The translations under genes were made by a program, and so were the position numbers. Positions 1,240-23,746 of a DNA stretch of 64,000 bases are shown here, one piece after another (the first letter of the stretch is position 1; the number at the start of each line of letters is the position of its first letter). The DNA comes from Verrucomicrobiota bacterium. GTDB taxonomy: Bacteria > Verrucomicrobiota > Verrucomicrobiia > Opitutales > Seribacteraceae. Location of the stretch: NCBI GenBank assembly GCA_027622665.1, contig JAQBYT010000005.1, positions 64,001 to 128,000 on the forward strand, in the 5' to 3' direction. Under the pieces are notes generated by a model, which saw nothing but the letters and a program-made list of their open reading frames with translations, searched no databases and was not told where the DNA came from.

Positions 1240-1310
1240 TTGACACAAGATTATTCGATGACGAGACTTTGACTAATCAAAACCAAATCTTTCACTACAG
1301 AAAATGAAAC
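1240..1310 (+). promoter_or_regulatory. Sigma70-like promoter with dyad operator (TTTGA-CTAA-TCAAA, 1268-1281) for the tro operon
   Basis: TTGACA at 1240, 17-bp spacer, GAGACT, dyad overlapping the -10 end; element conserved at 23676-23746. Confidence 0.7.
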
Positions 1311-1338
1311 CCTGTTTTATTTTGCCCGGAGTCAACTT

Positions 1339-2265
1339 ATGCAACTTCTTGGACTTGGATCAATCTTTACGATCTTGTTTTTAGCAGGATGCGATGCAGG
1401 CGATTCGGATGGGAAGCTGGTTGTTGTAACAACGACCACTCATGTTACGGACATGGTGAAGTTTGTAGCTGGTGACCGTTTGGATGTGATTGCGCTCATG
1501 GGGCCGGGCGTAGACCCCCACTTATACAAGCCATCTGCTGGAGATGCGGCTACCTTGGCCAAGGCTGATTTGATTTTCTTTAGTGGCCTGATGCTGGAAG
1601 GTCGTATGGCCGACGTTTTTGCAAAAGTCTCTCGCCGGGGAACCAAAGCTTATGCGGTAACCGAGAACGTGTCCGAAAAATCACTTCTCGAACCTGAAGA
1701 GTTTGAGGGACACTGGGATCCTCACGTATGGTTCGATCCCGCGATCTGGTCAAAGTGCGTTGACGTCGTCAGTGATGCCCTCTCTGAAAATGATCCTGAG
1801 GGCAAGGTTGGCTATACCGAAAGGGCAGAGGCACTGAAGACCGAGTATCTCGCCGTGACCCACTGGGCACAGGCGCGCTTAAGCGGTTTGCCCGAAGAAT
1901 CTCGTTATCTTGTTACCAGTCACGATGCCTTCAATTACTTCGGGCGTGCTTTTGGTCTCGAAGTCCTCGCCGTTCAAGGTGTTTCTACCGCTACCGAAGC
2001 AGGGCTTGCCGATCGAGTGGCCATGGTTGACTTCGTGAAGAAGCATGGCGTTAAGGCAATCTTTGTGGAAAGCAGTGTTAATCCTGCGATAATTGAGGGC
2101 ATCGCCAAGGAAGCCGGCGTGAAGATCGGAGGAGAATTGTTTTCCGACGCCATGGGCCAACCGGGTCGTTTGGAAAAGGGACCTGATGGCGAACAATACG
2201 ACATAGGCACTTGGGCTGGAATGATGAGGCATAACGTGAACACTATCGTAGAAGGGTTGAAGTAA
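1339..2265 (+). CDS. troA: Mn/Zn ABC transporter substrate-binding lipoprotein (TroA family)
   Basis: Lipobox LAGC; DPHLY, DPHVWFDP, SHDAFNYF, FSD give a His-His-His-Asp ligand set as in TroA. Confidence 0.92.
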   Translation: MQLLGLGSIFTILFLAGCDAGDSDGKLVVVTTTTHVTDMVKFVAGDRLDVIALMGPGVDPHLYKPSAGDAATLAKADLIFFSGLMLEGRMADVFAKVSRRGTKAYAVTENVSEKSLLEPEEFEGHWDPHVWFDPAIWSKCVDVVSDALSENDPEGKVGYTERAEALKTEYLAVTHWAQARLSGLPEESRYLVTSHDAFNYFGRAFGLEVLAVQGVSTATEAGLADRVAMVDFVKKHGVKAIFVESSVNPAIIEGIAKEAGVKIGGELFSDAMGQPGRLEKGPDGEQYDIGTWAGMMRHNVNTIVEGLK

Positions 2266-2269
2266 TAAT

Positions 2270-3061
2270 ATGGCTCATCCCCCCCCACTGGAGATTCACG
2301 ACCTCACGGTTTCCTATGATCGCAAGCCAGTCCTTTATGGGGTGGATGTCGTTGTTGAGACTGGTTCGTTGGTCGGCGTGGTAGGGCCGAACGGGGCTGG
2401 TAAGTCTACCCTGATCAAGACCATCATGGGCATCGTGCAGCCTAATGGCGGATGGGTGAAAATCTTTGGCCAACCATACAGGAAAGCAGTCACGCGTGTC
2501 GGTTACGTTCCGCAGCGCGAATCGGTAGATTGGGACTTTCCCGTGAGCGTTATGGATGTTGTTCTTATGGGGCGATATGGTCATGCTGGGTTCATGCGGC
2601 GAGTCAGTAAGCGAGATCGCCGGATCGCTTCCGAATGTTTGGAAAAAGTGAATATGCAGCCTTTTTCGGATCGCCAGATCGGCAATCTATCGGGCGGGCA
2701 GCAGCAGCGTGTCTTTCTTGCCCGAGCCCTTGCTCAAGAGAGCGACCTTTATCTTATGGACGAACCTTTTGCCGGGGTCGACGCCGCTACCGAGACAGCG
2801 ATTGTAGAGTTATTGCGTGATTTGAAGGAGCGGGGCAAAACCCTCATCGTAGTCCATCACGACCTTTCCTCTGCCCGCGAATATTTTGATAAGCTTATGC
2901 TGCTCAACATGCGACTTGTTGCTTATGGGGAAATGGAGGAAACCTTCACTCCCGATCTTCTGCAAAAAACCTACGGAGGGCGTCTCACCATCCTGTCGGA
3001 TGTCGCCGGTCAAGCGGCTGGTCGCTCGGAGTTCGAGCAAGAAGGCACTCCCAAGCTATAA
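2270..3061 (+). CDS. troB: Mn/Zn ABC transporter ATP-binding protein
   Basis: Walker A GPNGAGKST, YVPQR, LSGGQQQR, MDEPFAGVD, VHHDL. Confidence 0.95.
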   Translation: MAHPPPLEIHDLTVSYDRKPVLYGVDVVVETGSLVGVVGPNGAGKSTLIKTIMGIVQPNGGWVKIFGQPYRKAVTRVGYVPQRESVDWDFPVSVMDVVLMGRYGHAGFMRRVSKRDRRIASECLEKVNMQPFSDRQIGNLSGGQQQRVFLARALAQESDLYLMDEPFAGVDAATETAIVELLRDLKERGKTLIVVHHDLSSAREYFDKLMLLNMRLVAYGEMEETFTPDLLQKTYGGRLTILSDVAGQAAGRSEFEQEGTPKL

Positions 3062-4558
3062 ATGAAAGTTCTACGAACGATCCCGGTTTTTGTATTGCTG
3101 GTCTTTTTTGCCTTTCCTGCGTTAGTTCATGCCGCCCGTATCGGGGACGTGACCGATACGGATTGGGGTGAGCAAACCTTTCGCTTCCTCAGCTTGCGTG
3201 ACGCCGCCGTCCGCAATGCAGTCCTTGGTTCCGTCTTCATGGGTGTCGGTTGTGGTCTTTTCGGTGGATATGTGGTGGCCCGACGTTTGGCATTGTTTGG
3301 CGATACCTTGTCGCACGCGGTGCTCCCGGGAGTGGCTCTCGGCTTCCTTTGGAGTCGCTCGAAAGATCCCGTGGCCATTTTTATCGGAGCTACGGTGGCT
3401 GGGTTGTTGGGAACGTTTGTGGTTGCTTGGATACGCAAAACCACAAGGGTGAAAGAGGACAGTGCCTTGGGTCTCGTCCTTTCCGGATTCTATGCGGTGG
3501 GCATTTGTATTCTGACGGTTATTCAGCAGATGGAGTTCGGCAACCAGTCCGGCATCGACAAATTTCTTTTCGGGCAAGCTGCCGCCCTTTCGTCCGAGGA
3601 CGTGAGTCTGATGGGAGTAGTTGCCATAGGGGCGCTGATGATGGTCACTCTTTTTAACAAGGAGCTTCTCGTAACGAGTTTCGACGAAGGCTTTGCTCGC
3701 TCCGTGGGCGTACCCGTTGAGTTTATTCGTTACGTACTCCTCGTCGGTCTCACTTTTGCGGTGGTCACCTCGCTGCAGGCGGTGGGCGTGGTTCTTGTTT
3801 CCGCCCTTCTCATTACCCCCGCAGCCACCGCCTACTTGCTGACCGATCGGATGGGAACCTTGCTGTTGCTTTCGGCTCTGTTTGGGGTTGCGGGCGGATT
3901 GCTCGGTTCGTACGGCTCTTTTCTCGGCAATAATCTGCCAACGGGTCCTTTCATGGTTCTTGCCTGTACTTCTTTCTTTGCCATCGCCTTTTTTTGCGGT
4001 CCCAAGCATGGGTTGGTCTCCAAGTGGCTAAGGCGACGAAACCGAGTTCGTCAAGTGAGTTTGGAGAATACAATGAAGGCTGCCTATCAAGTGCTCGAGG
4101 CGGGCGATTTTGCTAAAGAGTCCGTAACCGTTGGAGCTCTGGCCGCTCGGAGACGGACAAGCGTGACCGAGGCTCGACGAGAGGCGGATGATCTCGTGAA
4201 CGCCGGTTTCGCGAGCATGCTCGGTTCCGACGACCCTGGTCCTCGTTATTCTCAAGACGCCAGACTCTCCCTTACTCCCGCCGGTTGGGAACGAGCCTGC
4301 CAAATTGTTCGTAACCACCGCCTTTGGGAACTCTACTTGACCAACGAGGTGCGCTATGCCGCCGATCACGTTCATGAGGATGCCGAAAAGATCGAGCATG
4401 TTTTGGGCGAAAAAGTTGTGCGTCATCTCGAGCGCATCCTAAAGGACCCCCAACGCGATCCTCACGGTTCAGTCATCCCCAGTCTCGAGGACATAGAACG
4501 TGGCTCTGGCTTATCGACCAATCCTGCATCCGCGACAGGGTACTTCCAGCAAAATTAA
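3062..4558 (+). CDS. troC: ABC-3 metal permease fused to a C-terminal DtxR-like domain (TroC/YtgCR-like)
   Basis: GDTLSHAVLPG permease motif and TM helices, then IVRNHRLWELYL...HVHEDAEKIEH...DPHG DtxR motifs. Confidence 0.9.
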   Translation: MKVLRTIPVFVLLVFFAFPALVHAARIGDVTDTDWGEQTFRFLSLRDAAVRNAVLGSVFMGVGCGLFGGYVVARRLALFGDTLSHAVLPGVALGFLWSRSKDPVAIFIGATVAGLLGTFVVAWIRKTTRVKEDSALGLVLSGFYAVGICILTVIQQMEFGNQSGIDKFLFGQAAALSSEDVSLMGVVAIGALMMVTLFNKELLVTSFDEGFARSVGVPVEFIRYVLLVGLTFAVVTSLQAVGVVLVSALLITPAATAYLLTDRMGTLLLLSALFGVAGGLLGSYGSFLGNNLPTGPFMVLACTSFFAIAFFCGPKHGLVSKWLRRRNRVRQVSLENTMKAAYQVLEAGDFAKESVTVGALAARRRTSVTEARREADDLVNAGFASMLGSDDPGPRYSQDARLSLTPAGWERACQIVRNHRLWELYLTNEVRYAADHVHEDAEKIEHVLGEKVVRHLERILKDPQRDPHGSVIPSLEDIERGSGLSTNPASATGYFQQN

Positions 4559-4563
4559 AAACG

Positions 4564-5547
4564 ATGCGCGAAGAGTTTTTTCCGACCTTTGACTCCGGGT
4601 CCGTTTTTGTGGATCCTTGGTTGTCCGGTTTCGAGAGCACCTTTCAGGTGGTCCTAATGGGTTTTTTTGTATGCTTGGCTTGCGGTGTCATAGGAAATTT
4701 CGTGGTTGCCCGTCGTCTTGCCTTGGTGGGCGACGCCATCAGCCACAGCCTGCTGCCTGGTATTGCCATTGCCTTTGTCTTCACTTCCTCACATTCGTTG
4801 CCTGCAATGTTGATTGGAGCTGCCGTCGCGGGTGTTCTTACCACGGTTCTGATCGAGCTGATTCACCGCAAGTCAAGGGTGAAGCCCGACGCAGCCATTG
4901 GGATCGTCTTCACTACCCTCTTTGCGGTGGGTGTGGTGGTAATCAGCATTTGGCTGGACAATGTCCACCTCGATGCAGATTGCGTGCTTTATGGTGAGAT
5001 CGGCCTAGTTCCATTACGGGAAAGCTTCATCTTGAGCGGAGCGAATCTTGGTCCGCTGCCAATCGCTATTATGGGCGCAGTAGCCCTGTTGGACATACTT
5101 CTAGTTATTGTTTTTTACAGGGTGCTCCTTGTCACGTCTTTCGATGCCGGGCTTGCTCGATCGCTGGGAATGCCCGTGAACACCACACATTATGGGCTTA
5201 TGATTGCCTTGGCGCTTACCATTGTGGCGGCCTTCGAGGCAGTGGGAGTTGTCCTGGTCGTTGCCATGCTTATTTTCCCCGCAGTCACGGTCGGTTTCTT
5301 TTTCGAGCGTTTACCGGCATTGCTGTTTGGTGTGGCGCCTCTTTCCTTGGCATATTCCCTCGGTGGTTTCCACCTCGCCAGGTGGTTGGACTGTTCAATC
5401 GCAGGGGCTATGGTGGTAACGGCCGGCGCATTATTTGTCGTGGCTTGGTTTTTCGGACCCAAGGGTGGCTTAATTTATCGCTCACGCGCGCTAGGTTTCC
5501 TTTTTGCAACATCCAAGCAGAAGATATCCCCGCAGATTGTCGGGTGA
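4564..5547 (+). CDS. troD: ABC-3 metal permease
   Basis: GDAISHSLLPG, VHLDADCVLYGEI, AAFEAVG motifs; multiple TM helices. Confidence 0.9.
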   Translation: MREEFFPTFDSGSVFVDPWLSGFESTFQVVLMGFFVCLACGVIGNFVVARRLALVGDAISHSLLPGIAIAFVFTSSHSLPAMLIGAAVAGVLTTVLIELIHRKSRVKPDAAIGIVFTTLFAVGVVVISIWLDNVHLDADCVLYGEIGLVPLRESFILSGANLGPLPIAIMGAVALLDILLVIVFYRVLLVTSFDAGLARSLGMPVNTTHYGLMIALALTIVAAFEAVGVVLVVAMLIFPAVTVGFFFERLPALLFGVAPLSLAYSLGGFHLARWLDCSIAGAMVVTAGALFVVAWFFGPKGGLIYRSRALGFLFATSKQKISPQIVG

Positions 5548-5650
5548 TATTCCGTTGAGGACTCTGCGGTGAACTTTTCCATCTGCGCCACTCTTTCTCA
5601 TTGAATTAACCGCAAGGTTTGTTTTCCTCTGATTCACTTGAGTTAACGGT

Positions 5651-6040
5651 ATGCTACGCAAAACCTGCATTCTTCTTTCATTACTTGCCGCCCTAACGGC
5701 GGCTCGCTTGCCTCTTGGCTTTGTTCAATTGGGGTCTTGGTCCGGAATGTTTTTAGATTACGTGGAACAGACTGGATCCGTTCCGGTTTCCTTGGCCTGG
5801 ACGTTTGACGGGGATCACCGATGTGGCGGATGCGTTTACGTCGGTGAAGCAACTGCAAACGCAGAAGATCAGGAGAAGTCTGCAACGGTTGAAACTTCCT
5901 TAAAAATCCCTTTCGCCTTACTGGACCTTCAGATTGTCGTAGTGGGACCCTCAAAGGTTTTGGGTGACTTGTCGGAGGAGTTTTGTCTTCTGCCCCTCTC
6001 TGTTCCGGAAACTTCCGTTCCGCCCCCGCGAATTTCCTAA
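5651..6040 (+). CDS. Small membrane/exported protein with CxxC and C-terminal proline-rich motif (DUF2946/CruR/CutF-like leader candidate)
   Basis: Hydrophobic N-terminus, TFDGDHRCGGC, ends PETSVPPPRIS; lies upstream of an outer-membrane barrel gene. Confidence 0.6.
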   Translation: MLRKTCILLSLLAALTAARLPLGFVQLGSWSGMFLDYVEQTGSVPVSLAWTFDGDHRCGGCVYVGEATANAEDQEKSATVETSLKIPFALLDLQIVVVGPSKVLGDLSEEFCLLPLSVPETSVPPPRIS

Positions 6041-6221
6041 GGTCCGAGTGGCTTTAGGCGAGCGACTGCGTCCTTTCTTGATTTCAAGGTCGTGTCCGTT
6101 GCCCATCCCTGCTCGTGAACTTTTTCTTGTGCAAGGTGCGACTATGTTCGCATGACGTGCTCGAACGATCGCCCAATCCGCAACCCATTTAATACTAAAG
6201 AAACTTTAATCCCAAAATCTA

Positions 6222-7241
6222 ATGAAAAAACTGACGACAAAACTTCTCCTCCTTGCGACATCCGTAAGTATCCTCAACGCGCATGAAGGGCCTTGGACTG
6301 CCGGTCGCCCCGATGGACATGCCCCCATCACCGTGATGGGCGGCCATATGCACGCCATGGGCGAATGGATGCTCTCCTACCGTTTCATGACCATGGATAT
6401 GGAAGGATTACTCGATGGTTCGTCCGGCACGAGTGCAGCTTCGGCTGTAACGAATTATGGTTTCAAAGATATGATGATGCTGCCCAAAGAAATGACCATG
6501 GACATGCACATGCTCGGTGCCATGTACGCCATTTCCGACAAATGGACCCTTATGGGCATGCTCAATTATCTAGACAACGACATGACCATGCAGAATGACA
6601 TGTCCATGGAATCGAATGGTCTTGGCGATCTCAAACTTAGCGGCCTCTACGATCTCGCTTCTTGGGATAACGGCCGCCGCGTGCATTTGAACGTTGGTAT
6701 CAGTGCCCCCACCGGAGCAATCGACGAACGAAAGGCCGACGGAACAACGATTCTTCCTTATGGAATGCAGCTTGGTTCGGGCACTTGGGACTTTCTTCCT
6801 GCTCTTACTTTTCTTGGGCAAACTGATAATTATTCGTGGGGTGCCCAAGTTGGCGGCGCCTTGCGCATGGGTGACAACGATCGAGATTACAGCCTTGGCA
6901 ATCGTTTTGACGCCGCTCTATGGGGTGGTCGCAAGTTGAGCGATTCCTTTAGCCTCTCCGCAAAATTCGATTATTTCAGCCAAGGTGAAGTCGATGGAGA
7001 GGACAAATACGTGACGGCTAAGCCTATGATGACCAAGAATATGTCTTCTGGTTATCGTGCTGACCACCAAGGCCGCGATCTCAGCACTTTTGGGCTCGGG
7101 CTCAATTACTATTGTCGAAACGGGATTTTCAAGGGTCATCGTTTAGCCCTCGAGTGGGAAACCCCGATGAGTGAGGAGGTAAACGGTGTTCAGCTCGAAA
7201 CCGATTCCATCTGGAGCCTTGGTTGGCAGTATGCCTGGTAG
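6222..7241 (+). CDS. Met/His-rich outer-membrane beta-barrel transporter (putative metal uptake channel)
   Basis: Signal peptide; RPDGHAPITVMGGHMHAMGEWMLSYRFMTMDM; GLGDL; MQLGSGTWD; C-terminal WQYAW barrel signature. Confidence 0.75.
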   Translation: MKKLTTKLLLLATSVSILNAHEGPWTAGRPDGHAPITVMGGHMHAMGEWMLSYRFMTMDMEGLLDGSSGTSAASAVTNYGFKDMMMLPKEMTMDMHMLGAMYAISDKWTLMGMLNYLDNDMTMQNDMSMESNGLGDLKLSGLYDLASWDNGRRVHLNVGISAPTGAIDERKADGTTILPYGMQLGSGTWDFLPALTFLGQTDNYSWGAQVGGALRMGDNDRDYSLGNRFDAALWGGRKLSDSFSLSAKFDYFSQGEVDGEDKYVTAKPMMTKNMSSGYRADHQGRDLSTFGLGLNYYCRNGIFKGHRLALEWETPMSEEVNGVQLETDSIWSLGWQYAW

Positions 7242-7288
7242 TACTTTGTCTTGGTTTGGCTAAGGATATTTGAACAAGCCATTTGAGG

Positions 7289-7323
7289 TGGGGTAGTTAA
7301 AAGGCTACACGACCCCATTTTTT
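7289..7323 (+). terminator. Possible intrinsic terminator after the barrel gene
   Basis: TGGGGT...ACCCCA imperfect stem followed by a T6 run. Confidence 0.35.
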
Positions 7324-7395
7324 CATAGCGTGCTTGAACCTTGCCATAGAGCTCATTTTTACTATTTTCAGAATCTTTCCCCAATATACAAACCC

Positions 7396-8100
7396 ATGGG
7401 TACTCAATATAAGAAGGTTATAAAGCGCAAGCGGCGTAAGGCATATTTGGCTCGCCGCAAGGCGTCATTAAAAGAATCTCTCCCCGCTACCAAGAAGGGC
7501 CGCAAAGCTGCGGCCGCAAAGCCAAAGTCTAAACGCAAGGCGTCTCCAAAGAAGGCTGCTCCCGAGGAAGTGAAGGAAGAAGTCGCCGAGGAGGCTGTTG
7601 CCGACAAAGCCTCGGCTGTCGATATACTAGGAGTAGATTCCGTGAAGGAGCAGGAGACTCCAAGCGAAGAGACTCAGTCTCCGGAACCAGTAGAGGAAGC
7701 CGCTGTCGAGGAAACTCCTGGCGAAGAGGTTGCGGCCAAAGAAAAGCCGTCTGAAGATTCTGCTGAACAAGCCGAGCCTGAAGCCGAGGCTACCGAAACT
7801 GAGGAACCCGTTGCCGAGGAACCCGCTGAGGAGGAAGAATCTTCCGAATCTAGTGAGGAAGCCGAGGCGAAAGCTGACGATGTGAGCGACAATCAAGAGC
7901 CAGACGCAGAGGTAGCCGAAATCGAGGAACCCATTGCTGAGGAACCAGCCGAAGCAGGAGAATCTTCAGATGCCGAGGAACCAGAAGCTAAGGCGGAAGT
8001 CGCCACTGCCGATGATTCCGTAGAATCCGAAGAGTCCACGGAAGCCGAATCTGATGCTGAGTCCGTGGATGCTGCGGAGGAAGAGAAGAAAGAGGATTGA
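7396..8100 (+). CDS. Hypothetical protein with Lys/Arg-rich N-terminus and long Glu/Ala/Pro-rich disordered tail
   Basis: ATG at 7396 (MGTQYKKVIKRKRRKAYLARRK); acidic tail with an internal repeat of about 40 aa. Confidence 0.75.
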   Translation: MGTQYKKVIKRKRRKAYLARRKASLKESLPATKKGRKAAAAKPKSKRKASPKKAAPEEVKEEVAEEAVADKASAVDILGVDSVKEQETPSEETQSPEPVEEAAVEETPGEEVAAKEKPSEDSAEQAEPEAEATETEEPVAEEPAEEEESSESSEEAEAKADDVSDNQEPDAEVAEIEEPIAEEPAEAGESSDAEEPEAKAEVATADDSVESEESTEAESDAESVDAAEEEKKED

Positions 8101-8120
8101 TTGTTTCCTCGGCGATTTTC

Positions 8121-8618
8121 ATGAAACGCCGAGCCCTTTTATTTTTCTGCGCGATTCACTTGGCCGCCTTGTCGGCTCTCCATGCGTTTGAGTTTCGTCA
8201 TGTCGCCCATAGGTATGTCGAGGCGAAATCGTTCAAGAGAATCAGCGAATACTTTACCGGCCGGGAAAATCCGGGCAATCGTTTGCTTTGTCGTTCGCGT
8301 CCCGTGGAAAGGGCGGGTCTCTACTTCATCCTCTCGCTAAACGAACATTCCCGCAAACTGCCGCAGGGGGCTCAATTCGTTGTTGAGTTTATCCGACCCG
8401 ATGACCCCGAAACCAAAACGATTCGCGTTCCGGTTCCCGAACATCGTCCACGCGGCAAAGAAATCTACCTCGGGTTAACCGGAGATGACTGGCCCGATAA
8501 GATTGCTCGTCCTGTTGCTTGGCGTTTGCGTTTGGTCGATGCCTCCGGCGAGGTTCTCGCCCAGAGAAAAAGCTTTCTCTGGGAACATCCTGCCGACAGG
8601 TTCGAGCGCGGATCGTGA
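8121..8618 (+). CDS. Hypothetical exported protein
   Basis: MKRRALLFFC signal-like start; stop overlaps next start (GTGA). Confidence 0.65.
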   Translation: MKRRALLFFCAIHLAALSALHAFEFRHVAHRYVEAKSFKRISEYFTGRENPGNRLLCRSRPVERAGLYFILSLNEHSRKLPQGAQFVVEFIRPDDPETKTIRVPVPEHRPRGKEIYLGLTGDDWPDKIARPVAWRLRLVDASGEVLAQRKSFLWEHPADRFERGS

Positions 8619-10758: not shown

Positions 10759-12933
10759 CAACCTTCCAATTTATCCCTAGCCCTAACGATCTGTTGGGTT
10801 GCGGTATCGGCTCAATCCAAGAAACCGAATGTCATCCTATTTATGGCGGACGACATGGGCATCGGTGATACCAGTGCCTACCTAGGGGTGAAACTGATCC
10901 CTCAGACCGAGGCGATTGGGAAAACTCTTAAGACGCCCAATATCGAGAAGCTAAGCAATCAGGGCATGATCTTCACGGATGCCCCCGCCTCCATGTGCAG
11001 CTCGACGCGCTATTCCCTCCTTACGGGGCGGCTCTCGCATCGTTCCTACCTTAAAAAGCAAGGTTGGCTTCCGAACGGTCCCAGTCGGCCCATGATTCAC
11101 CGAGAATTGACTACCCTTCCCGAGATGCTGAAAGGAACGGTTACGCCACAGCGGCGATCGGGAAGTACCATGTCGGGATGGATTTCGACGATGGGTACGG
11201 AGCACCTGCTGATGAGTTCGACTTCCATGACGTTGACTTCACCAAGTCCATCCTGGACGGGCCGACTCACCATGGCTTTGATGAATTCTTCAGGATGCCG
11301 GGAAACACCGAGGACCCCCTTGACTCCGAACCCAGAGTGTACCTTCGCAACGACCGGTGGACCTTTTCGAACCGCTCGAAAATGAGGTTGATCGGAATGA
11401 AGCACAGGGAAGGTCGCGTCCTCGCGGATCCGGACTGGAACCTTGCTGACCTCGAGGCCGATTACCTGCGCGAGGCCTTAGGCTTCGTGAAGAGGCAGGC
11501 CAAGGAAGAGAAGCCCTTCTTCCTCTACTACGTACCCAATGCAAACCATTACCAGCGAAACCCGACCGGGGAGTACGCCGTGCCCGAAGCCATTGCCGGC
11601 ACTAAGATCAAGGGAGAGAGCGTATATTCCGACGGCACCAAGGGAGGCGACCGCGAGGACATGGTTCTGGAAAACGACACTGCTTTCGGGGCATTGCTCA
11701 AGACGCTCCGAGAGACGGACGATCCTCGTCAACCAGGCCATAAACTGATCGACAACACCTTGGTGATCTTCACTAGTGACAACGGCTCAAATGTGGGTGA
11801 AAACAAAGGCCGAAACCAGGAAAGCGGGGGGTTGCGGGGCAAAAAGGCAAAGATTTGGGAAGGTGGACACCGCGTACCTTTTGTTCTCTTCTGGAAGGGA
11901 CATTTCTAGGGTAACCGGATCAACCGGAATCTGTTCTCGCTCACGGATCTCTTCGCCACCCTCGCCCGCGTCGTCGGGGACAAGCTCAATCCTTTCGAGG
12001 CCCAAGACAGCTTGGATTCGCTCGCATACTGGAAGGCCCCCGAGTGCGCGCTATTTCTTTTGCCACCTCGGACCGCCCTACGGAAACGACGCCATCGCAA
12101 TAAGGCAATCATCCCAAAAACTCATCTTTCAAGGTGGTCTTGCACATCCATGGGCAGACTCTTGAACTAAAGGGTCTACGGAAGCACTTGTCTCTTATGA
12201 ACTAAGTGAAAACCCGTACGAGGAAGGAGATTTTTCCGATAAGGACGGGAGCGAGAAAGCAACGAGAATGGCTGCCGATTTGTTAAAGATCCATAACCGT
12301 GGCCATCTGCGAGAACTCGATCCGCAAGACGACGGAAACCTGATTCTTGACGACGGATGGCACAACTTGAGAAACGACCTGACCGGAGTAATCGGATTCG
12401 AGTTCGAGCTTCTGGAAAAACGCACAGCCACCCACCTAGGAATGTGGGACGACCATGACCGCGAAAAGCCTGTCCGTTCCGCACGCGGAATTCCCACCGA
12501 GGAGCAACGGGACCAACCAAGCCGGATTGGGAAAAACCCAAGAACCATACAAAGCCCGCCTTCAATTGCCCTCTGGAGGCTCGATGGAGGCTTTCCGGAA
12601 GAACTCATCCGCATGAAAATGGCACCAGGCAAATCAGGCGAACTTGAAGGCGAGTTTCGATACTTGAAGGTCGACAGGCCCATTGCCCTTGAAAAGGGAG
12701 CCAAGTACCTGCTCACCATGTCCACTATTGCGGGTGACGGGGATCATTTTCACGACCCCGCCGCCTACGACGGTATATCCCCGCTGATCAATCCCAAGGT
12801 CAGGGTCCTCCGAAGCGTCCTTTTCAGGAATGAGGATATGGAACGGGCATTGGCAATTCCCTCATTCGCTGATCTACGTTCCGACTACTCTTTATTTCGA
12901 ATCCCCGTCGGCCCGACCATCCGATTCCAATAG
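10755..12933 (+). pseudogene. Arylsulfatase (S1 family) with C-terminal extension; multiple lesions
   Basis: KPNVILFMADD, CSSTRYSLLTGR, IGKYH, FTSDNG, EGGHRVP split over frames; frameshifts near 10770, 11134 and 12040; in-frame stops TAG 11907 and TGA 12163. Confidence 0.85.
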
Positions 12934-13030
12934 AACCCTTATGGAAAAGCTTTCGCGTAATAATGAACTGCGTATCCCAATAGAGCACATGGTTGAGATT
13001 TAATATTCTCTTCTGCTTCACTCCTTGCTA

Positions 13031-13568
13031 ATGAAACACACACCTTTGCCTTTCCTCGCTTGTGTTCTCCCTGACAGGACATGCCTCCATTGAGCCCGTT
13101 CCCTTCCACGAAGTCGAGATGACGAGCGAGTTTTGGCGCCCGCGTCTCATCACCCAGCGAAAGGTGCTGGTTCCCTTCGCCTTCGAAAAGACCGCACAGG
13201 GCGTGGCCCACCTGCAGGCAGCGGCCGACTTTTTGGAAGGGAAAAAAGTGGAGGAGCATCGTCCCCACAGGTTCATCGATTCCGACCTTTACAAGGTCAT
13301 GGAAGGCGCCGCCTACCTGGCCCAATTACAGGACGACCCCGAATTGGAAGCCGCCTACCCTCAGCTTTTCGTCACAAACGAGGAGATAACGAAGAATCGA
13401 GACCAAGCGAGAAAAGCCCTCAAGGAAAACGCGCACTTCAAGAAGCTCACCGATGACCGGGCTGCCGCCTACCGGGCTCAACAGGACCACCTCTACGAAA
13501 ACGACGAAAGACTAGCAGAGCTCAAGGAATTAGTGGAAAACGAGAAAGCGCAGTCCAAAAACAAATAA
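13031..13568 (+). pseudogene. Chimeric remnant: GH127 (beta-L-arabinofuranosidase-like) N-terminus joined to an unrelated helical C-terminus
   Basis: VPFHEVEMTSEFWRPR and FIDSDLYKVMEGAAY are GH127-like; similarity ends at DPELEA; likely ATG at 13031 is out of frame with the ORF. Confidence 0.6.
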
Positions 13569-15064: not shown

Positions 15065-15069
15065 AAAAG

Positions 15070-15843: not shown

Positions 15844-15978
15844 ATGCTTGCCGGAACTTCAAGCAAATCAATTAGTCTTCCCAAAAAGGTGATCATCTTG
15901 AAAACCATTGCATTGACAATATCGAGCCAAAGGCAAGGAAAAGCTTGCTCAGGGTAAGGTTCGCTTCGATAAGAAATT

Positions 15979-16854: not shown

Positions 16855-16923
16855 AGGCTTCCGCGGGGCACGGTTAATCGGGATTTGGCGCGAGCCAATA
16901 ATCCGTGGCCATCTGGCTTTAGT

Positions 16924-17592
16924 TTATTTCTTGATTCGAAAGTGACCTGTAATTGGAAAATCGAACAGTCGGTTTTCTTCCTGAGCGCCACTGCCGATAT
17001 TGTGGATTACGAATGGAACCCCGGTGGGGGTCTTCTTGTCGCTCACTATCATTATATGCGCCAAATTACGGCCCACCGTGCATATGACTAAGTCGCCTGG
17101 CAGATAGTCCTTCGCTTTCCGAGTCACGACTAAGGAGCAACCCCGACGCTTGAAATAGGTCTTGAGGTTAGGGACGCGTCGATGGTCGATGTTGGGGTCG
17201 GGTTTCTTGAGGCCCCAGATATTTGGGTATGCGGAAAAGGCAGTTTTCATATCCTCATGCAAAAGTTTCCGCAGGTCGATCTTGCATGCATCGCGTAAAG
17301 CTCGAATCACGACGTCCGTACAAACTCCCGTTTCAATGGGGAGGTCACCATTTGGATACGCCAATCCGACGTAAGTGGGATAATAACTTAGTGTTTTCCC
17401 AATCTGACTGCGGGCTGCCGTAACGATTGGGGATGCGGTTGCCTCGCGTTTTGTCTTAGGTGTTGCGGAATTGCCGTCTCCTAGTGTCGGGCCTTGGTCG
17501 CAACCAACCACGAACCAGGCAATCATGGCCAAAAGCCAAGTGGCGCTTCTGAACCGTGTTCGGCAATTTGTCCGTGTCGCCTGCTTCAACAT
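16924..17592 (-). CDS. DUF1287 (YijF-like) protein, probable lipoprotein
   Basis: YPNGDLP..GVCTDVVIRA, DPNIDHRRVPNL, HIMIVSD, HNIG; start placed at ATG 17592, upstream ORF extension judged non-coding. Confidence 0.85.
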   Translation of the reverse strand: MLKQATRTNCRTRFRSATWLLAMIAWFVVGCDQGPTLGDGNSATPKTKREATASPIVTAARSQIGKTLSYYPTYVGLAYPNGDLPIETGVCTDVVIRALRDACKIDLRKLLHEDMKTAFSAYPNIWGLKKPDPNIDHRRVPNLKTYFKRRGCSLVVTRKAKDYLPGDLVICTVGRNLAHIMIVSDKKTPTGVPFVIHNIGSGAQEENRLFDFPITGHFRIKK

Positions 17593-17861
17593 TAGTAAAG
17601 ACCCCAATGCAATGGATAGTTTTTTGTTAATGATGCGGTATTCGTTTACCAATGTATCGTCACATGATTTGAATTTATTCTGATAACACACTTTAGAAGT
17701 AAACGGCAAGTTTGCCCAAAGCAGAATCATCAACAGGGGGAGGTTTCCGGAAGTCCCTCCATCCCAAAGAATCAAAAAATCGCGCGAAATGACTGGAAGT
17801 AGATCCAATCTGGCGCTAATTGATTTCGACCATCCGATAACACACAACCTAGAAGTTACCA

Positions 17862-20693
17862 ATGACCACCTTACGATTCACCTGCATTGCCCTGTCACTT
17901 TCTTTGGCGAGCGCCTTTGGCCAGAGCCAGTTGCCGCCGCTGGAAAAATCTGTTGAGGATCCCTCAACGGGACTCAACGTCCAACCGGGCTTCGAAGTCG
18001 ACCTGATCTACAAGGTGGATAAGAGAAAGTATGGCTCTTGGATAGCGATGGCCTTTGACGGCCAAGGCCGCTTGTCGGTATCCGACCAAGGAGGGGCCGG
18101 CACCTTCTCGGTCGAGATACCCAAGCCAGGCGAGGCCTTCGACGAAAGCAAGATCAAGAAGCTCGACGTCAAGTCGTCCCAGTGGGGCATGCTCTATGCC
18201 TTCGATCACCTCTACATGATGGGCAATCGCAGCCTTTCCCGGGCCAAGGTCCTGCCAAATGGAGATTTAGGACCAACTGAATTCCTCGCGGAAATGAATG
18301 GGGGCGGCGAACACGGACCCCACTCCATCGTTGTCTCTCCCGACGGCAAAAGCCTGTACGTCATAGCGGGAAACATGACCCCGCTGCCAAAGTACCAGAA
18401 GACCCGCATACGGGACAGCTGGAAGGACGACTACCTTCTGCAAAATTACGCCTATGGACACAATGGAGGAGGTCAGGCTCCCGGTGGCTGGGTCTTGAAA
18501 GTGAGTCCGGACGGCAAGGAACGGGAAGTCCTCAATATGGGCTATCGCAACCCGGTCGACTTCGCCTTGAATCGGGACGGCGAGCTCTTCGTCTACGATG
18601 CCGACATGGAATGGGACATCGGCGCCCCGTGGTACCGCCCGACCCGCGTCAATCACGGCGTTTCCGGAGGCGAAAGCGGTTGGCGGGCCACCTCCAAGAA
18701 ATGGCGGGAATATTTCCCGGACACCGTGGGTTCGGTGGTCGACGTCGGACCCGGTTGCCCGACCGGCGTAATCGCAGGCACCGACACGAAATTTCCCACC
18801 CATTACCGCGACGCCCTATTCATCTGTGACTGGACCTTCGCCACCATGTACTCGATCCACCTGAAGCCGCAAGGATCGTCCTATGTCGGCGAAAAACGCG
18901 AGTTCATCTCCAACACCAAGGGCTCGCTGTCACTGACCGACATCGATATAGGCCCGGATGGCCACATGTACTTCTGCGTCGGCGGCCGCGGTGGGCAATC
19001 CTACCTTTACCGCGTATCCTACAAAGGAACGGCATCCACTGCCTTGTCAAAACTGGACAGCACTAGCTCCCACGCGGAGGCACGCGGAACCCGTCACATG
19101 CTTGAGGCTTTTCATGGTCATCCCGACCCAAAAGCTGTGGATGCAGCCTGGCCCTATCTGAGCAGCGCGGATTACCATTTGCGTTATGCCGCCCGCATTG
19201 CCATGGAGTGGCAGGATACCAAGATATGGGCGGATAAAGCCTATTCGGAAAAGGACGACGTTGCGGCCATTCACGCCCTGCTTGGTCTGGCCCGAAGCGA
19301 TCTCGAAGCCAGCTTGGCGCCCAGCGTCAAGCGCCTCCTGAAAGTCGACTTCGACAAACTGGACAAAACGGGCCAGCTGGCTCTGTTGCGAACCTATGGA
19401 GTGATTATGAGCCGTGGCGGAAAGCCGGAAGCCGGCCAAGTAAAAGCCATCGGCGACCAACTGGATCCTCACTTCCCCTCCAAGGACGACAACCTCAACG
19501 AGGAACTCTGTCGCGTGCTCTGCTACTTGCAGCACCCGTTGGTGGTCGAGAAGACCGTAGCCCTCATGCAAACCACAAAGGCCAAGATTCCCGACTTCGA
19601 CGCAGAGGTGATGAAGCGCCACAAGGGCTATGGCGGTAGTATCCTGAGCTCGATGGAATCCGCTCCCAATATCCTCAACATACATTTTCTCTTTTGCCTG
19701 AAGGACGTTCAGGAAGGTTGGACCATGGATCATCGCAAGGTCTACCTCGCCGAACTGAAAACTCTAATGAGCAAGAAGGGCGGCAACATGTTTACCGGTT
19801 ACATCCAGAAGATCAGGGATTCCGCGATCGCTTCCGTCCCCGAAAAGGACAGGCCCTCCTTGCAGTATCTGATGGGTGACATAAAGAGCATCGACATCTC
19901 CAAGCTGCCCAAGGCCAAAGGGCCCGGTGTTGTCTGGACGGTGGATTCCGCCCTCAAGATGCTCAAGGAGGAACCTCTCGCAGGACGCAGCTTGGCCAAT
20001 GGCAAGAAGATGTTTTCGGCCGGATTGTGCGTGGCCTGCCACCGCGTTGGCCCCGAGGGTGGCGGAATTGGACCCGACCTGACGAACCTGGCCAAACGCA
20101 GCGACTACAAAGCCATGTTGGAATCCACTTTGCAACCCAACTTGGTGGTATCCGACCAGTTCGAACAACACGAGCTGAAGATGAAGGACGGTGCCGTGGT
20201 CATGGGTCGCATCGTGGTGGATGAAAAAGACTCCTATTCCTTGGTCCAGTCCGGACTCGAGCCCTTGAAGCTCAAGAAGGTCATGAAAGCGGATGTCGCC
20301 TCCAAGAAAGGCTCCAAAATCTCCATGATGCCTCCCGGCTTGGCCAACTCGATGAATGCGGATGAACTGAAGGATCTCATTGCCTATTTCGTCTCCCAGG
20401 GAAACAACCGTCATCCGGTTTACAAAAGACCCAAGTCCAACAAGAAGCTGGATATCGAAATCATCAGTGCGATCTATGGAGTGAAAGGAAACGCTCAGAG
20501 GAGCATGGATGTCAGCAAGGCCATCGAGCAGTACCTCGATGCCCGGGAATACGAATTTGAGATCACCAATGTTTTTGCAGGTCGAGACCCGGCCGGCGGC
20601 ACAGCCAAGGTGCTGGTGCTCGAGTATAAGTTCAACGGCAAGAAAATCAGTAAAACGATTAATGAGAACGGTCTCGTTTCTTTCTACGAATAG
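17862..20693 (+). CDS. PVC-type heme-c (CxxCH) protein: dehydrogenase-like beta-propeller, HEAT repeats, cytochrome c, C-terminal DUF3395/SUEL-lectin-like domain
   Basis: GGEHGPH, GYRNP, DMEWD.GAPWYRPTR, CVACH...GPDLT, SMMPPGL; tail IISAIYG...DPAGGTAKVLVLEY. Confidence 0.85.
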   Translation: MTTLRFTCIALSLSLASAFGQSQLPPLEKSVEDPSTGLNVQPGFEVDLIYKVDKRKYGSWIAMAFDGQGRLSVSDQGGAGTFSVEIPKPGEAFDESKIKKLDVKSSQWGMLYAFDHLYMMGNRSLSRAKVLPNGDLGPTEFLAEMNGGGEHGPHSIVVSPDGKSLYVIAGNMTPLPKYQKTRIRDSWKDDYLLQNYAYGHNGGGQAPGGWVLKVSPDGKEREVLNMGYRNPVDFALNRDGELFVYDADMEWDIGAPWYRPTRVNHGVSGGESGWRATSKKWREYFPDTVGSVVDVGPGCPTGVIAGTDTKFPTHYRDALFICDWTFATMYSIHLKPQGSSYVGEKREFISNTKGSLSLTDIDIGPDGHMYFCVGGRGGQSYLYRVSYKGTASTALSKLDSTSSHAEARGTRHMLEAFHGHPDPKAVDAAWPYLSSADYHLRYAARIAMEWQDTKIWADKAYSEKDDVAAIHALLGLARSDLEASLAPSVKRLLKVDFDKLDKTGQLALLRTYGVIMSRGGKPEAGQVKAIGDQLDPHFPSKDDNLNEELCRVLCYLQHPLVVEKTVALMQTTKAKIPDFDAEVMKRHKGYGGSILSSMESAPNILNIHFLFCLKDVQEGWTMDHRKVYLAELKTLMSKKGGNMFTGYIQKIRDSAIASVPEKDRPSLQYLMGDIKSIDISKLPKAKGPGVVWTVDSALKMLKEEPLAGRSLANGKKMFSAGLCVACHRVGPEGGGIGPDLTNLAKRSDYKAMLESTLQPNLVVSDQFEQHELKMKDGAVVMGRIVVDEKDSYSLVQSGLEPLKLKKVMKADVASKKGSKISMMPPGLANSMNADELKDLIAYFVSQGNNRHPVYKRPKSNKKLDIEIISAIYGVKGNAQRSMDVSKAIEQYLDAREYEFEITNVFAGRDPAGGTAKVLVLEYKFNGKKISKTINENGLVSFYE

Positions 20694-20735
20694 CCTAGTA
20701 GAAAAAGTAGGCGGCTTCTTAGGCAAGATCAACCT

Positions 20736-22772
20736 TCAAGGCTTGGATTCCTGTTTCTCGTCCAATTTTTCAAGCTCGACCGAGTCCTTGATTGCTCCTT
20801 GAAACTCCTTGTCAAAGGAGACCCGGTTTCCTGATTCGGTCTTTCCTCTGTTTTGATGTGGATGGGGGCGGAAAATCATCTTTCCTCCTAGCCATTCAAG
20901 CTTCGCAAGCCTGGGGGGCTTGCCATTCCAATTGCTCTTCCTTGCCCGCGGATCCTCCGTGCGGTTGGCCGGGGAAAGCAGAAGCTCGGTCGCTTCATCC
21001 CAATCCTTCATCGCTTGCCCTTTCGCATTACTGAACTGTGACACTTGCAGACTTAATTTGTGCACACCCCCTTTTGGCAAATCGACCAAGGCCACAAAAG
21101 TATCCCGCTTTCTTCCGGTATACCCCTGCCAATGATTCACATTGATTTGCACGCCGAGCTGGTTGCCATCTCCAAAGGTTTCGATTTCCACACCTAGCTC
21201 TCCCTGCTTGGGCCCGATCCAAGATGGATCGACAATCTTGCGGGTGGCATACTTCCAATGATGCGGATTTCTCCAACTCAAGCGATACCAGTCCTGCCAA
21301 CCTCTTGAGAAATCATCGATCAAGCGACTTGGTCTTTCGGTCGGTTTTGTTTTCGATTTCCTTAAATCCTCGGGATAAGCCGTCCGGTACTCGGAACTGA
21401 GGGTCAGAAGCTTGGTCGCCTCGGTTCCCGGACGGGGTGGAAGAGCCCTTGGCATCTCGTAGGTAAGGTTGGCAAAGGCGAAGAGCGGTTCTGCACTGTC
21501 GAACACCGGGCATTCCCCTTCGTAAACCTTCCCGGACTTTCGAACCTCGGCACCCCGCCAGAAACGAATGCGCGGATCCCTGGCATACCCGTAGTAGATC
21601 TCCACTTCCTTCACCGGCAAACCGCTTGATTGATCAACCTGCACCCGAAAGAGCGGAACCCCGTTATCCGTATTCAGAACCAATTCCGCGGGCGAGACTT
21701 TGGGAAACCGAAAGCTTTTCTTGAGGCGGGCTTCCATCCACATGAAACGGGCGGCAGAGGTTTGATCGGTAAAGCGATGATTCAAATGAGGAGCCAACAC
21801 GAGCATCCTCTCCGTTTCAGGAGGCAACTCGGACATGCCCTTGACCACCCATTCCGTCGGGGAGTTGAAATCATTGGTCGATCCGAGAAAAAGGATCGGG
21901 GCGGTGACGTGGGGCCAATGAGACTGGGCGGAGACACATTTGCGATAAAGGGCCAAACCGTCTTCCTTGGTCATTCTTCGGGCGCTCCCTGGCAAGCCCC
22001 ACAGGTCATCGTAGAGATATCCGCTCCCTCCTACGGAAGGTGAGGCCGCCTTGACCCGCGGGTCGATGCATGAAATTACGGTGGAACGCCCCCCCATCGA
22101 GTGCCCCTCCACACCAAGCTTGTCAGGGTCTACCCCTTCGGTTTGCTCAAGCATCGTCAAGGCCCGCCGCACGCAAATTGAGATTAAATTCCAACTGCTG
22201 TTCAGGGGGTGAGGTTCTTTGAAGAGGGTATTCGGATCGGGTCTGACGGTGTTGTGATGATCCAGTTGATCTGCCTTGGTCACCCCCGGACGAATGAAGC
22301 CCGCCGCCAAACCATCCCAGTCCGTGTTAGGCGTATCCGCTTTTTCCAAAACTTTTCCTCCCCAATTGATGCTCACGCACGCATATCCCATCTCCATCCA
22401 GTCCTCCACCCGTCTACGGTTTGCCCGCTGCCCACCTCCGTGAACGTGAACGATGCCCGGCTTGGACTCCTTTCCTTTGGGCAAGCCCAAATAGGCGGCA
22501 ACGACTGGCCTGGCGGATTTGTTACTCCCTTGAAGCTTGCCCAAAGAATAAAGAACGAGCCTTACATCGCCCTGTTCCGTTTGCCAGGATTCGACGACCC
22601 GGACGTTAAGTGGCTCCTTGCGGGCATCATAGCTCATCCAGAAATCGAGCATGTTGGAAACCAAATTTCTTCCGCCGAAAGACGGTATCCCCGTCTCACC
22701 GAAGGTTGAGAGGGGGGACAAGAAAATCAGCCCTAGCTTGAAAAGGAAACCGGTTTTGGGTTTGAAACTCAT
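20736..22772 (-). CDS. Secreted dienelactone-hydrolase/acetylxylan-esterase-like protein with C-terminal accessory domain
   Basis: HVHGGGQ, GVEGHSMGG, TNDFNSP, APHLNH; paralogue at 40489-42555. Confidence 0.8.
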   Translation of the reverse strand: MSFKPKTGFLFKLGLIFLSPLSTFGETGIPSFGGRNLVSNMLDFWMSYDARKEPLNVRVVESWQTEQGDVRLVLYSLGKLQGSNKSARPVVAAYLGLPKGKESKPGIVHVHGGGQRANRRRVEDWMEMGYACVSINWGGKVLEKADTPNTDWDGLAAGFIRPGVTKADQLDHHNTVRPDPNTLFKEPHPLNSSWNLISICVRRALTMLEQTEGVDPDKLGVEGHSMGGRSTVISCIDPRVKAASPSVGGSGYLYDDLWGLPGSARRMTKEDGLALYRKCVSAQSHWPHVTAPILFLGSTNDFNSPTEWVVKGMSELPPETERMLVLAPHLNHRFTDQTSAARFMWMEARLKKSFRFPKVSPAELVLNTDNGVPLFRVQVDQSSGLPVKEVEIYYGYARDPRIRFWRGAEVRKSGKVYEGECPVFDSAEPLFAFANLTYEMPRALPPRPGTEATKLLTLSSEYRTAYPEDLRKSKTKPTERPSRLIDDFSRGWQDWYRLSWRNPHHWKYATRKIVDPSWIGPKQGELGVEIETFGDGNQLGVQINVNHWQGYTGRKRDTFVALVDLPKGGVHKLSLQVSQFSNAKGQAMKDWDEATELLLSPANRTEDPRARKSNWNGKPPRLAKLEWLGGKMIFRPHPHQNRGKTESGNRVSFDKEFQGAIKDSVELEKLDEKQESKP

Positions 22773-22854
22773 GTAGCCAACCTAAACCATCTCAGGCAAA
22801 GGTTAAGCTCAGAAGCATTCGTTTGATTGGTTTCTTAGCCGACAAGCCGGACGG

Positions 22855-23682
22855 CTACCATCTGCGTGTGAACCCAAAGAATAGACCAAAATCCTCCGAC
22901 GTATTGTTCAAGCCAACCTGAGTTCCAAGATCAAGTACAAGATCTTCGTGTACGGTGTAGGTAAAGCCACCTGCCCCGAAAGCCCGATAGGACGGATCAC
23001 CCTCTATCCCGACGTACTCTACGAAGGAACCGAACCGTTGGTTCAGGTCGAAACCGAGCACGGCTGAGTGCAGAAACTCGAAGTCGTGGTCTTTGCGAAC
23101 CGCATCGTAGATGACGTCGAATTCAGCCATCAGGCCAAGGCCTATTCCTCCGGAAATTTCCGTAGCATAAGGAATGATCAAGCCACCCTCCCATTCGTCA
23201 TTGCTGAATTGCGCAGTCGTGGGGATTTTCACGAAGGGGAAAAGGGCGAGAGCGGAATCACCTCCGTCATTACCCCAAAGGTTGTATTTGAGCCTTAACT
23301 GGACATCGCCGAAGCCCTCTGAGTCCTTACCGACCTTCGGGTCTTCCCTGGTGTAGGTATCGAAAACGATCTGCAAATCCACATCGTTGGAGAGACCGAT
23401 TTTGAAGTTGGTCGACAGAAGGGTGTGAGTATCGCTTCCATCGTTTCTTCGCCAATCAAAGACACTGGTCTCTATCACGAAATGACCTGCATCCACGGTC
23501 AATGGACTTTCCGTCGCATCCGGTCGGTCGGGGGATAGCTCGCGCATGAGCTCACGGGGCGTCGGATTGAGGAGGGTGTATTGGCTCTTTGAACCAGACA
23601 CTGGCAAGCTATTCTCGGCAGCAACTTCCGGAAAGGGAGTTGATCCGATGGTAAGGCTAACAAGGATGGGGATAAGTTTCAT
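22855..23682 (-). CDS. Outer-membrane beta-barrel transporter (phenol MetA-pathway/COG4313-like)
   Basis: Signal peptide; LSPDRPDATESP.TV, GFGDVQLRLKYNLWGNDGG; C-terminal FTRRW. Confidence 0.8.
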   Translation of the reverse strand: MKLIPILVSLTIGSTPFPEVAAENSLPVSGSKSQYTLLNPTPRELMRELSPDRPDATESPLTVDAGHFVIETSVFDWRRNDGSDTHTLLSTNFKIGLSNDVDLQIVFDTYTREDPKVGKDSEGFGDVQLRLKYNLWGNDGGDSALALFPFVKIPTTAQFSNDEWEGGLIIPYATEISGGIGLGLMAEFDVIYDAVRKDHDFEFLHSAVLGFDLNQRFGSFVEYVGIEGDPSYRAFGAGGFTYTVHEDLVLDLGTQVGLNNTSEDFGLFFGFTRRW

Positions 23683-23746
23683 TTTTTCTAGTGAAAGATC
23701 AGATTTTGATTAATCAAAGTATCGTCCTCGAATGATCTTGTGTCAA
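23676..23746 (-). promoter_or_regulatory. Copy of the tro promoter/operator with perfect palindrome TTTGATTAATCAAA (23705-23718)
   Basis: Minus strand reads TTGACA-N17-GATACT...ATGAAAC; 62/71 ungapped identity to 1240-1310. Confidence 0.75.

Follow-up and report, generated by a model that had tools for sequence, protein, structure and literature searches.

The locus examined here raises the question why a metal-uptake operon and a distant, unrelated gene for an outer-membrane barrel begin with nearly the same 71 bp of DNA. Both lie in a window of 64,000 nucleotides, which is the whole stretch that was analyzed (Verrucomicrobiota bacterium, assembly GCA_027622665.1, contig JAQBYT010000005.1, positions 64,001 to 128,000 of the forward strand). 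The operon, troABCD, encodes an ATP-binding cassette (ABC) system and is preceded by a divergent mntR/troR gene. On balance, we favour the reading that the repeat is a copy of the genome's own troABCD promoter and that the barrel, controlled by MntR/TroR, is a predicted channel for Mn2+ (possibly Fe2+) feeding TroA. The source genome, G000, comprises 4.5 Mb in 66 contigs; other genomes, loci, proteins and runs are coded G, L, P and X, respectively.

A promoter and operator shared by two genes

1240..1310, plus strand: promoter copy of the tro operon, likely the original; −35 TTGACA at 1240-1245, −10-like GAGACT at 1263-1268; congeners carry the orthologous promoter at the same place
1266..1283, plus strand: operator 1 of the tro promoter, 18 bp, overlapping the −10; core dyad TTTGACTAATCAAA at 1268-1281
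1290..1303, plus strand: operator 2 (weak, putative), 22 bp downstream of the first, with 7/10 core matches
23676..23746, minus strand: promoter copy of the barrel gene; −35 at 23746-23741, −10 GATACT at 23723-23718, start codon ATG at 23682
23718-23705 and 23696-23683, minus strand: core of operator 1 and putative operator 2 of the barrel copy
22855..23682, minus strand: outer-membrane barrel of PF13557/COG4313 type, 275 aa, N-terminal DRPDxTES; candidate Mn2+/Fe2+ entry channel
549..1208, minus strand: mntR/troR, DtxR-family repressor of 219 aa, divergent from troA, with PF01325, PF02742 and PF04023

The gapless alignment of 1240-1310 (plus) with 23746-23676 (minus), reported in an earlier note on this DNA with 62 of 71 identical positions, was reproduced, and TTGACA, the 17-bp spacer, GAGACT/GATACT and the dyad TTTGA(C/T)TAATCAAA were found where that note had placed them. 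The repeat is sharply bounded, since the flanking DNA (100 nt upstream and 110 nt downstream) was no more alike than shuffled sequences (p 0.36 and 0.58, respectively). Homology beyond the 71 bp, with the signal peptide of the barrel read as a frameshifted troA start, did not rise above shuffles either and was rejected. A scan of all 66 contigs with up to 30 mismatches allowed yielded 2 copies in the whole genome, which rules out a generic dispersed repeat. An RNA element was likewise rejected, with no Rfam match in positions 1-30000 of the window.

An assembly chimera, which the note had raised as an objection, is unsupported: contigs run across both copies. Four runs were compared over 21800-24800. 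One 10.5-kb contig of run X12, near-identical and possibly the source of this DNA, covers the region unbroken with 3 substitutions, and an 894-bp contig of X13, from a separate study, bridges 23570-24463 (barrel start, promoter and upstream gene). For 1000-1700, contigs of four runs show no listed substitution or indel, of which X2 and X5 may be source data. The runs that contain this DNA and carry a label come from aquatic, estuary, marine or seawater metagenomes, and the host is a marine member of Verrucomicrobiota.

The dyad was found to be conserved in the family. For relatives, 30 mntR loci were fetched and 29 used (L032 was dropped, no dyad being seen). All 25 mntR-troA loci of the family have TTTGA and 24 of them have TCAAA, with a variable spacer. 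The Treponema tro operators listed in the oligonucleotide table of PMC2628430 are identical to the barrel copy at 16 of 18 (T. pallidum) and 15 of 18 positions (T. denticola), and to the tro copy at 14 and 13 of 18, respectively. Repression by TroR was reduced when that tro operator was mutated (PMC2628430). The 28 other genomes used for a position weight matrix (PWM), among them close congeners, supplied 18 distinct operators. In a scan of G000, the barrel site ranked first with 31.1 bits and the tro site second with 26.1 bits, followed by a site of 20.0 bits. The 20 hits of at least 12 bits contained no further convincing site of a wider regulon, and no NRAMP-like gene of G000 lay near them. 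The exact box TTTGA-N4-TCAAA, for which a genome-wide scan had been proposed, occurs at 8 sites in G000 (16 strand hits), with 0.00035 occurrences expected per 200 bp.

The likeness to Treponema, the conservation in the family and the top PWM ranks bear out the earlier view of the dyad as a TroR/MntR-type operator. From these sequence comparisons, co-repression of the tro operon and the barrel gene through this operator is very likely. Among the points against the favoured reading as a whole is the −10 of the tro copy, which matches TATAAT at just 3 of 6 positions.

The protein encoded at 549-1208 consists of a helix-turn-helix (HTH), a dimerisation and an FeoA/SH3 domain, all three Pfam models being above their cut-offs, and falls short of the cut-offs set for the named NCBIfam MntR/DtxR equivalogs. 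Its ligands N8, H79, E83, H98, E102, E105 and H106 follow the TroR pattern (N10 in TroR; PMC2628430), with the Asn and the Glu at the positions of DtxR M10 and C102. The TroR of T. denticola, which has the same ligand set, responds to Mn2+ and Fe2+ and not to Zn2+ (PMC2628430).

Operator and ABC system are of the already known TroR-troABCD kinds. Shared with Treponema are the TTTGA-N4-TCAAA dyad, the seven metal ligands, TroA as best PDB match, the overlap with the −10 (as in T. pallidum) and the SH3-like tail (as in T. denticola) (PMC2628430). Unlike in Treponema, the repressor gene is divergent from the operon, TroC is fused to a DtxR domain, the operator is followed at 22 bp by a weak second site and a barrel belongs to the regulon; in the available part of PMC2628430, no such barrel is named for the TroR regulon.

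Part of the conserved leader is likely a second operator, because core matches peak at one offset across promoters. Among 31 boxed promoters, chosen by hand to thin out close kin, 19 have at least 7 of 10 core matches at +22 bp (mean 6.4). Other offsets between −45 and +45 never gave more than 5 such promoters nor a mean above 4.7. The +22 site is also present in barrel promoters that are otherwise unlike the tro promoter (L039, L042, L057, L063). In G000, the second sites are weak, with 2.6 bits in the tro copy and 6.6 bits in the barrel copy. The same 22-bp period is found in Streptococcus mutans, where SloR binds cooperatively to two 18-bp SloR recognition elements 4 bp apart, the weaker of which is not bound alone (PMC12096823). 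Unlike there, the box here has another sequence, and the second site is downstream of the first and known only from conservation. In G036 (L003/L034), the operator abuts the mntR start codon and a near-perfect second site lies at +22.

The barrel family and its gene neighborhoods

The barrel matches PF13557 with 61 bits (cut-off 22) and is the sole match to this family in G000; all 30 hits of an Atlas search were PF13557 clusters. Its structure model contains 12 long strands, with a predicted local distance difference test (pLDDT) score of 89.5, and the segment before strand 1 is conserved and confidently modelled. The structural search returned FapF at ranks 1-10 and Pput2725 at rank 20, with NanC also among the closest folds. 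Identity in the matches to known channels is 12-15%, and a PDB sequence search with the barrel profile gave no match. The 12 strands, the N-terminal segment before strand 1 and the Pfam membership are shared with the COG4313/PF13557 channels Pput2725, TcpY and SphA and the amyloid transporter FapF (PDB entries for this channel group: 4rl8 and 5o65). Pput2725, TcpY and SphA are described as channels for hydrophobic uptake (PMC4493636), and FapF serves amyloid export. Unlike these channels, the subfamily of the barrel is tied to metal-uptake operons. The barrel has more than 1000 homologues in one search, some from complete genomes, and its family is annotated only as 'transporter' or 'MetA-pathway of phenol degradation'. 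Barrels were found in 2 of 75 other genomes of the family, in 30 of 400 genomes at order level and in 24 of 400 at phylum level, counts obtained with different E-value cut-offs and from many incomplete genomes.

Gene neighborhoods were evaluated at 42 of 49 non-self places, leaving out the second fragment of L057, four paralogues beside examined loci, G191:C14 and G344:C45. L037 duplicates L039, and L078-L080 are uncounted. The barrel adjoins troA/troB at 20 of the 42 loci, the synteny that the note had proposed to check, and an NRAMP gene at 6, which makes 26 of 42 in total. A stand-alone DtxR-family gene is adjacent at 19 loci, a DtxR-type dyad lies within 1.9 kb upstream of the barrel or its operon at 33, and at least one of these metal links (transporter, regulator or dyad) was identified at 35. 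In a quick barrel tree (L057, with a broken frame, omitted), the loci without a link fall in four places and form no single clade. The transporter-adjacent loci belong to 7 coded families plus one Verrucomicrobiales contig. Gene orders vary: the barrel may come first, stand between troA and troB, or lie before or after the NRAMP gene. The box type goes with the regulator type: TTTGA-N4-TCAAA in 7 of 9, TGTAGC-N4-GCTAC in 5 of 5 and TTAG-N6-CTAA in 5 of 5 loci. More distant homologues were found on plasmids (nine records; the seven read are from Bacteroidota, Cyanobacteria and Alphaproteobacteria), and at 6 of these 7 loci a CzcA pump, a heavy-metal transport/cation-ATPase pair or a cation transporter is encoded no more than about 5 kb away. 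The link to metals is broader for these loci, but efflux contexts appear among them as well.

At L059:2-1255, a boxed barrel is divergent from a bisphosphoglycerate (BPG)-independent phosphoglycerate mutase gene, and the operator may be common to both. Two PF13557 paralogues stand close together within the metal cluster at L053/L106, L054, L058 and L060.

Neighborhoods and boxes support the view that the barrel belongs to a DtxR-family metal-uptake regulon. Since its relatives mostly stand beside manganese-type importers and its promoter is nearly that of the tro operon, the barrel is likely an entry pore for Mn (or Fe), probably wired in through a copy of that promoter. As a divalent-metal entry channel it is probable on the sequence evidence, and manganese would be the main substrate in about two thirds of that expectation. 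Of the earlier proposal of a co-regulated Mn/Zn entry route, the co-regulation is supported, and Mn/Fe is a better fit than Mn/Zn.

In the proposed mechanism, dimers of MntR loaded with Mn2+ would occupy operator 1 over the −10 and, cooperatively, the weak operator 2, keeping both genes silent. When Mn is scarce, the tro operon and the barrel would both be de-repressed. The ion would then cross the outer membrane inside the barrel, in an acidic lumen that the N-terminal DRPDxTES segment would narrow, be bound by TroA and enter through TroBCD. In full-length numbering, at least 96% of 71 close homologues retain D52, D55, E58, E71, D102, E165, D189 and D251, of which E71 and the four that follow it lie on the polar face of the strands. 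Conserved acidic positions thus occur both along the N-terminal segment and on the polar strand faces.

Several observations weigh against this assignment. No metal link was seen at 7 of the 42 loci (L002, L045, L046, L049, L070, L072, L077), of which L002 is a syntenic, N-terminally shortened, boxless copy in the same family. Related genomes are not independent in the neighborhood counts, and the second and third box types are descriptive, because they were read off the same loci. Hymenobacter homologues precede efflux pumps rather than importers. The lumen also has conserved basic residues (K94, R130, K132, K152, R274). The acidity does not discriminate, because those unlinked homologues that were checked retain the acidic residues too, and an electronegative cavity is also found in Pput2725, a channel believed to transport hydrophobic molecules (PMC4493636).

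Two other substrates have to be considered. One view, which we regard as unlikely, is that the system serves iron or zinc rather than manganese and that the barrel is an Fe2+/Zn2+ or unselective divalent-cation pore. TroR of T. denticola, with the same seven ligands, also answers Fe2+, TroR of T. pallidum is reported to be Zn2+-responsive (PMC2628430), and chlamydial YtgABCD/YtgR, with the same TroC fusion, is iron-linked (PMC5599777). Distant homologues in Czc-type clusters point the same way. However, Glu is the MntR/TroR state of the C102 position, and TroR of T. denticola did not respond to Zn2+ (PMC2628430). Further arguments for manganese are the pairing of the barrel with NRAMP/MntH at six loci and the one boxed barrel divergent from a BPG-independent phosphoglycerate mutase. 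This mutase is a Mn enzyme.

Similarly improbable is an MntR-regulated barrel whose cargo is not free Mn2+ but a metal chelate or some other amphipathic molecule, moving by the lateral diffusion that has been proposed for COG4313 channels. The fold is that of Pput2725 and FapF, and the conserved basic lumen residues could bind an anionic ligand. D126, P154 and T155, invariant in the 71 homologues, resemble the D/PTG cluster proposed as the lateral exit (PMC4493636), matched by motif only. Against this reading, the barrel has T156 where that motif has G, and a scan of 44 neighbors showed neither chelator-synthesis nor TonB genes. The partner importers also argue against a chelate, as TroA-type and NRAMP transporters take up free divalent ions.

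The role proposed for the barrel is filled elsewhere by MnoP, an alphaproteobacterial protein controlled by a Fur-family protein, the likeness being one of role and not of sequence comparison. In Bradyrhizobium japonicum, MnoP is an outer-membrane Mn importer needed under Mn scarcity (PMC9334652, PMC6011978). The barrel differs in being of a PF13557 kind that is probably under three DtxR-family repressor types. MnoP, OmpU and MnoT are the outer-membrane Mn importers named in PMC9334652. A literature search, with subscription papers, supplements and RegPrecise outside its scope, found no metal role for COG4313/PF13557.

Promoter copying is a neat but familiar event, and the valuable result is a COG4313 subfamily that likely provides the outer-membrane step of Mn (or Fe) uptake. 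The strongest form of this proposal, to which we give somewhat less than even chances, is that the PF13557 subfamily is a dedicated, plug-gated outer-membrane Mn2+ channel, the first metal-ion channel of the COG4313 fold, wired to three DtxR-family repressors in Verrucomicrobiota and re-wired here through a captured tro promoter and an out-of-frame ATG. If true, MnoP and MnoT would be joined by a new class of Mn importers in the outer membrane. Few proteins are known for the passage of Mn across the outer membrane at very low concentrations, and the barrel is a specific candidate from a family whose assigned roles have so far been amyloid export and the uptake of hydrophobic molecules.

Origin of the barrel promoter

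1282..1338, plus strand: former 5′ end of the troA frame, with ACC at 1282 where close congeners have an in-frame ATG
1339..2265, plus strand: troA, cluster A-I metal-binding lipoprotein (PF01297; ligand motifs DPH, DPH, SHD, SD)

The barrel promoter is identical to the tro promoter of its own genome at 62 of 71 positions, to those of six close congeners at 54-58, to those of two distant congeners at 44-46 and to those of other family genera at 32-46. The tro promoter of G000 agrees with the close congeners at 56-60 positions. Seven states are exclusive to the two G000 copies, none of them being found in the six close congeners, and the private changes amount to four in the tro copy and five in the barrel copy. 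From the sequences, there is good reason to regard the 71-bp repeat as a lineage-specific copy from the tro locus to the barrel. Promoter duplication, one of two histories suggested in the earlier note, is borne out and explains the shared spacer. The other history, an ancestral operon with the barrel as first gene, does not fit, the barrel being found in just two of the other family genomes and in neither beside a tro operon. A weakness of the copy reading is the 71-bp tree, which unites the two G000 copies with just 70% bootstrap.

It is rather unlikely that no recent copying occurred, so that the repeat came with the barrel from a barrel-first donor operon or reflects selection on the −35, the −10 and two operators. 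Barrel-first tro operons exist in other families (L044, L047, L054, L055, L058, L060, L061, L067-L069, L074), and none was found among the 75 other family genomes. Operators 1 and 2 together make up 28 of the 71 positions, but four of the seven shared states lie beyond operator 2, and same-box promoters of other genera reach 32-46 of 71 at most. The G363 orthologue of the barrel (88% identical) has its own TTTGA-N4-TCAAA box in unrelated DNA, and the boxed barrel and tro promoters of G363 are alike at just 34 of 71 positions; the same regulation thus recurs without duplication. At 4 positions, the barrel copy keeps the state of the congeners where the G000 tro copy has changed, and P0002 (88%) has the same new signal peptide, which would place the event perhaps in a sister lineage.

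The copied DNA appears to comprise promoter, operator and old troA 5′ sequence, because the bases after the operator-edge ATG are troA codons in congeners. In the five close congeners that were translated, troA can start at this ATG, which gives a longer TroA signal peptide; the codon is ACC or ATC in the G000 copies. The ATG at 1304, previously taken as the shared start of both genes, is a start codon in the barrel copy only (23682). In the tro copy it is followed, 35 nt on, by the troA ATG at 1339, with which it is not in frame; it begins an open reading frame (ORF) of 26 codons that overlaps the troA start. The supposed shared leader therefore is, in the tro copy, the 5′ end of the old troA frame together with the likely second operator. 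A frameshift error between 1304 and 1339 is unsupported, an X15 contig covering 1303-1493 without a gap. In close congeners, the troA start at the operator's edge makes for a nearly leaderless message; in G007, G011 and G013 the start is shifted downstream by about 15-18 nt, and in G000 it is at 1339.

Residues 1-31 of the barrel are 26% identical to those of the orthologue, compared with 88% for the remainder. These 31 residues are common to P0001 and P0002, and the copy event may therefore predate the species. In the proposed history, the barrel would have arrived in a variable block between a haem-protein gene and a pyrroloquinoline quinone (PQQ) gene, its 5′ end would have been replaced, and the tro promoter with about 29 nt of old troA 5′ sequence would have been copied in front of it, so that an ATG out of frame at troA became the start codon of the barrel. 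The locus would then offer a datable example of how a gene enters a regulon through a copied promoter, with a start codon from another frame.

The cognate repressor and the two gene clusters

2270..3061, plus strand: troB, ABC ATPase; best NCBIfam match manganese/iron ABC ATPase, below cut-off
3062..4558, plus strand: troC, permease fused to a DtxR-like domain, YtgCR-like (PF00950 and PF02742)
4564..5547, plus strand: troD, permease (PF00950)

The closest PDB match of TroA is T. pallidum TroA (1toa, E 1e-58). Two DtxR-like sequences were found in G000, the 549-1208 protein and the domain fused to TroC, and the earlier note had named either as the possible repressor. The stand-alone protein is likely the cognate repressor of both promoter copies, as its type has the box upstream at 7 of 9 barrel loci with an adjacent regulator. 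It is favoured because operons with the fusion mostly have another box and because the TTTGA box occurs in mntR-barrel-NRAMP loci. Binding of the TTTGA operator by the YtgR-like fused domain instead, the sole other DtxR-like sequence of G000, is very improbable. In its favour, the dimerisation helices of the fused domain retain their run of His/Glu ligands, and YtgR of Chlamydia functions as a repressor (PMC5599777), yet 6 of 7 homologue operons with the fusion have the box TTAG-N6-CTAA, the HTH region of the fused domain aligns poorly with that of MntR, and the TTTGA box is present in loci without troC (L050, L056), although a fusion may sit elsewhere in those genomes.

TroC-DtxR fusions are reported in 11 phyla (PMC5599777). 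As in Chlamydia YtgCR, TroC here has a C-terminal DtxR domain in a troABCD-type operon; unlike there, a separate full-length repressor stands beside the operon and the box tracks that repressor. Six TroC-DtxR operons (L088-L093) have the TTAG-N6-CTAA box, and in five of these no stand-alone regulator is adjacent; this box is a candidate operator of YtgR-like domains.

Directly after troD, a 129-aa ORF with a CGGC motif and the C-terminus VPPPRIS was found (5651-6040, plus strand). It is followed by a second, His/Met-rich barrel (6222-7241, plus strand) with no Pfam match, whose Atlas neighbors are 46-64% PF13557. A further PF13557-like branch may serve copper, because the 129-aa ORF resembles the copper-sensing upstream ORFs of the DUF2946/CruR kind.

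The genes next to the barrel are the following.

20736..22772, minus strand: AXE1-like hydrolase gene (weak PF05448), 82 bp downstream of the barrel, in the same variable block
23787..25868, minus strand: PQQ-dependent dehydrogenase-cytochrome gene, ending 40 bp before the −35 of the barrel, at the flank of the variable block

The AXE1-like gene is possibly co-transcribed with the barrel. No terminator-like site was found in 22600-24000, and read-through from the PQQ gene could therefore blunt the regulation of the barrel, which counts against tight control by the operator. Two RNA runs gave no cover of the barrel gene and hold no evidence either way on its expression. The block of barrel and AXE1-like gene is absent at this site in G003 and G006, where the haem-protein gene is joined directly to the PQQ gene. 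The variable site spans 20693-23788 (comparison of L125, L126 and L131), and in G005 it holds an unrelated 2.4-kb insert. The haem-AXE1-barrel block is also present in G015, which belongs to a different genus; it is 80% identical there, and its barrel is shortened and unboxed. Elsewhere in the window, a sulfatase-like gene at 10843-12165 is split over several overlapping frames and 13062-13568 resembles a fusion of unrelated fragments, in both cases by decay or assembly error.

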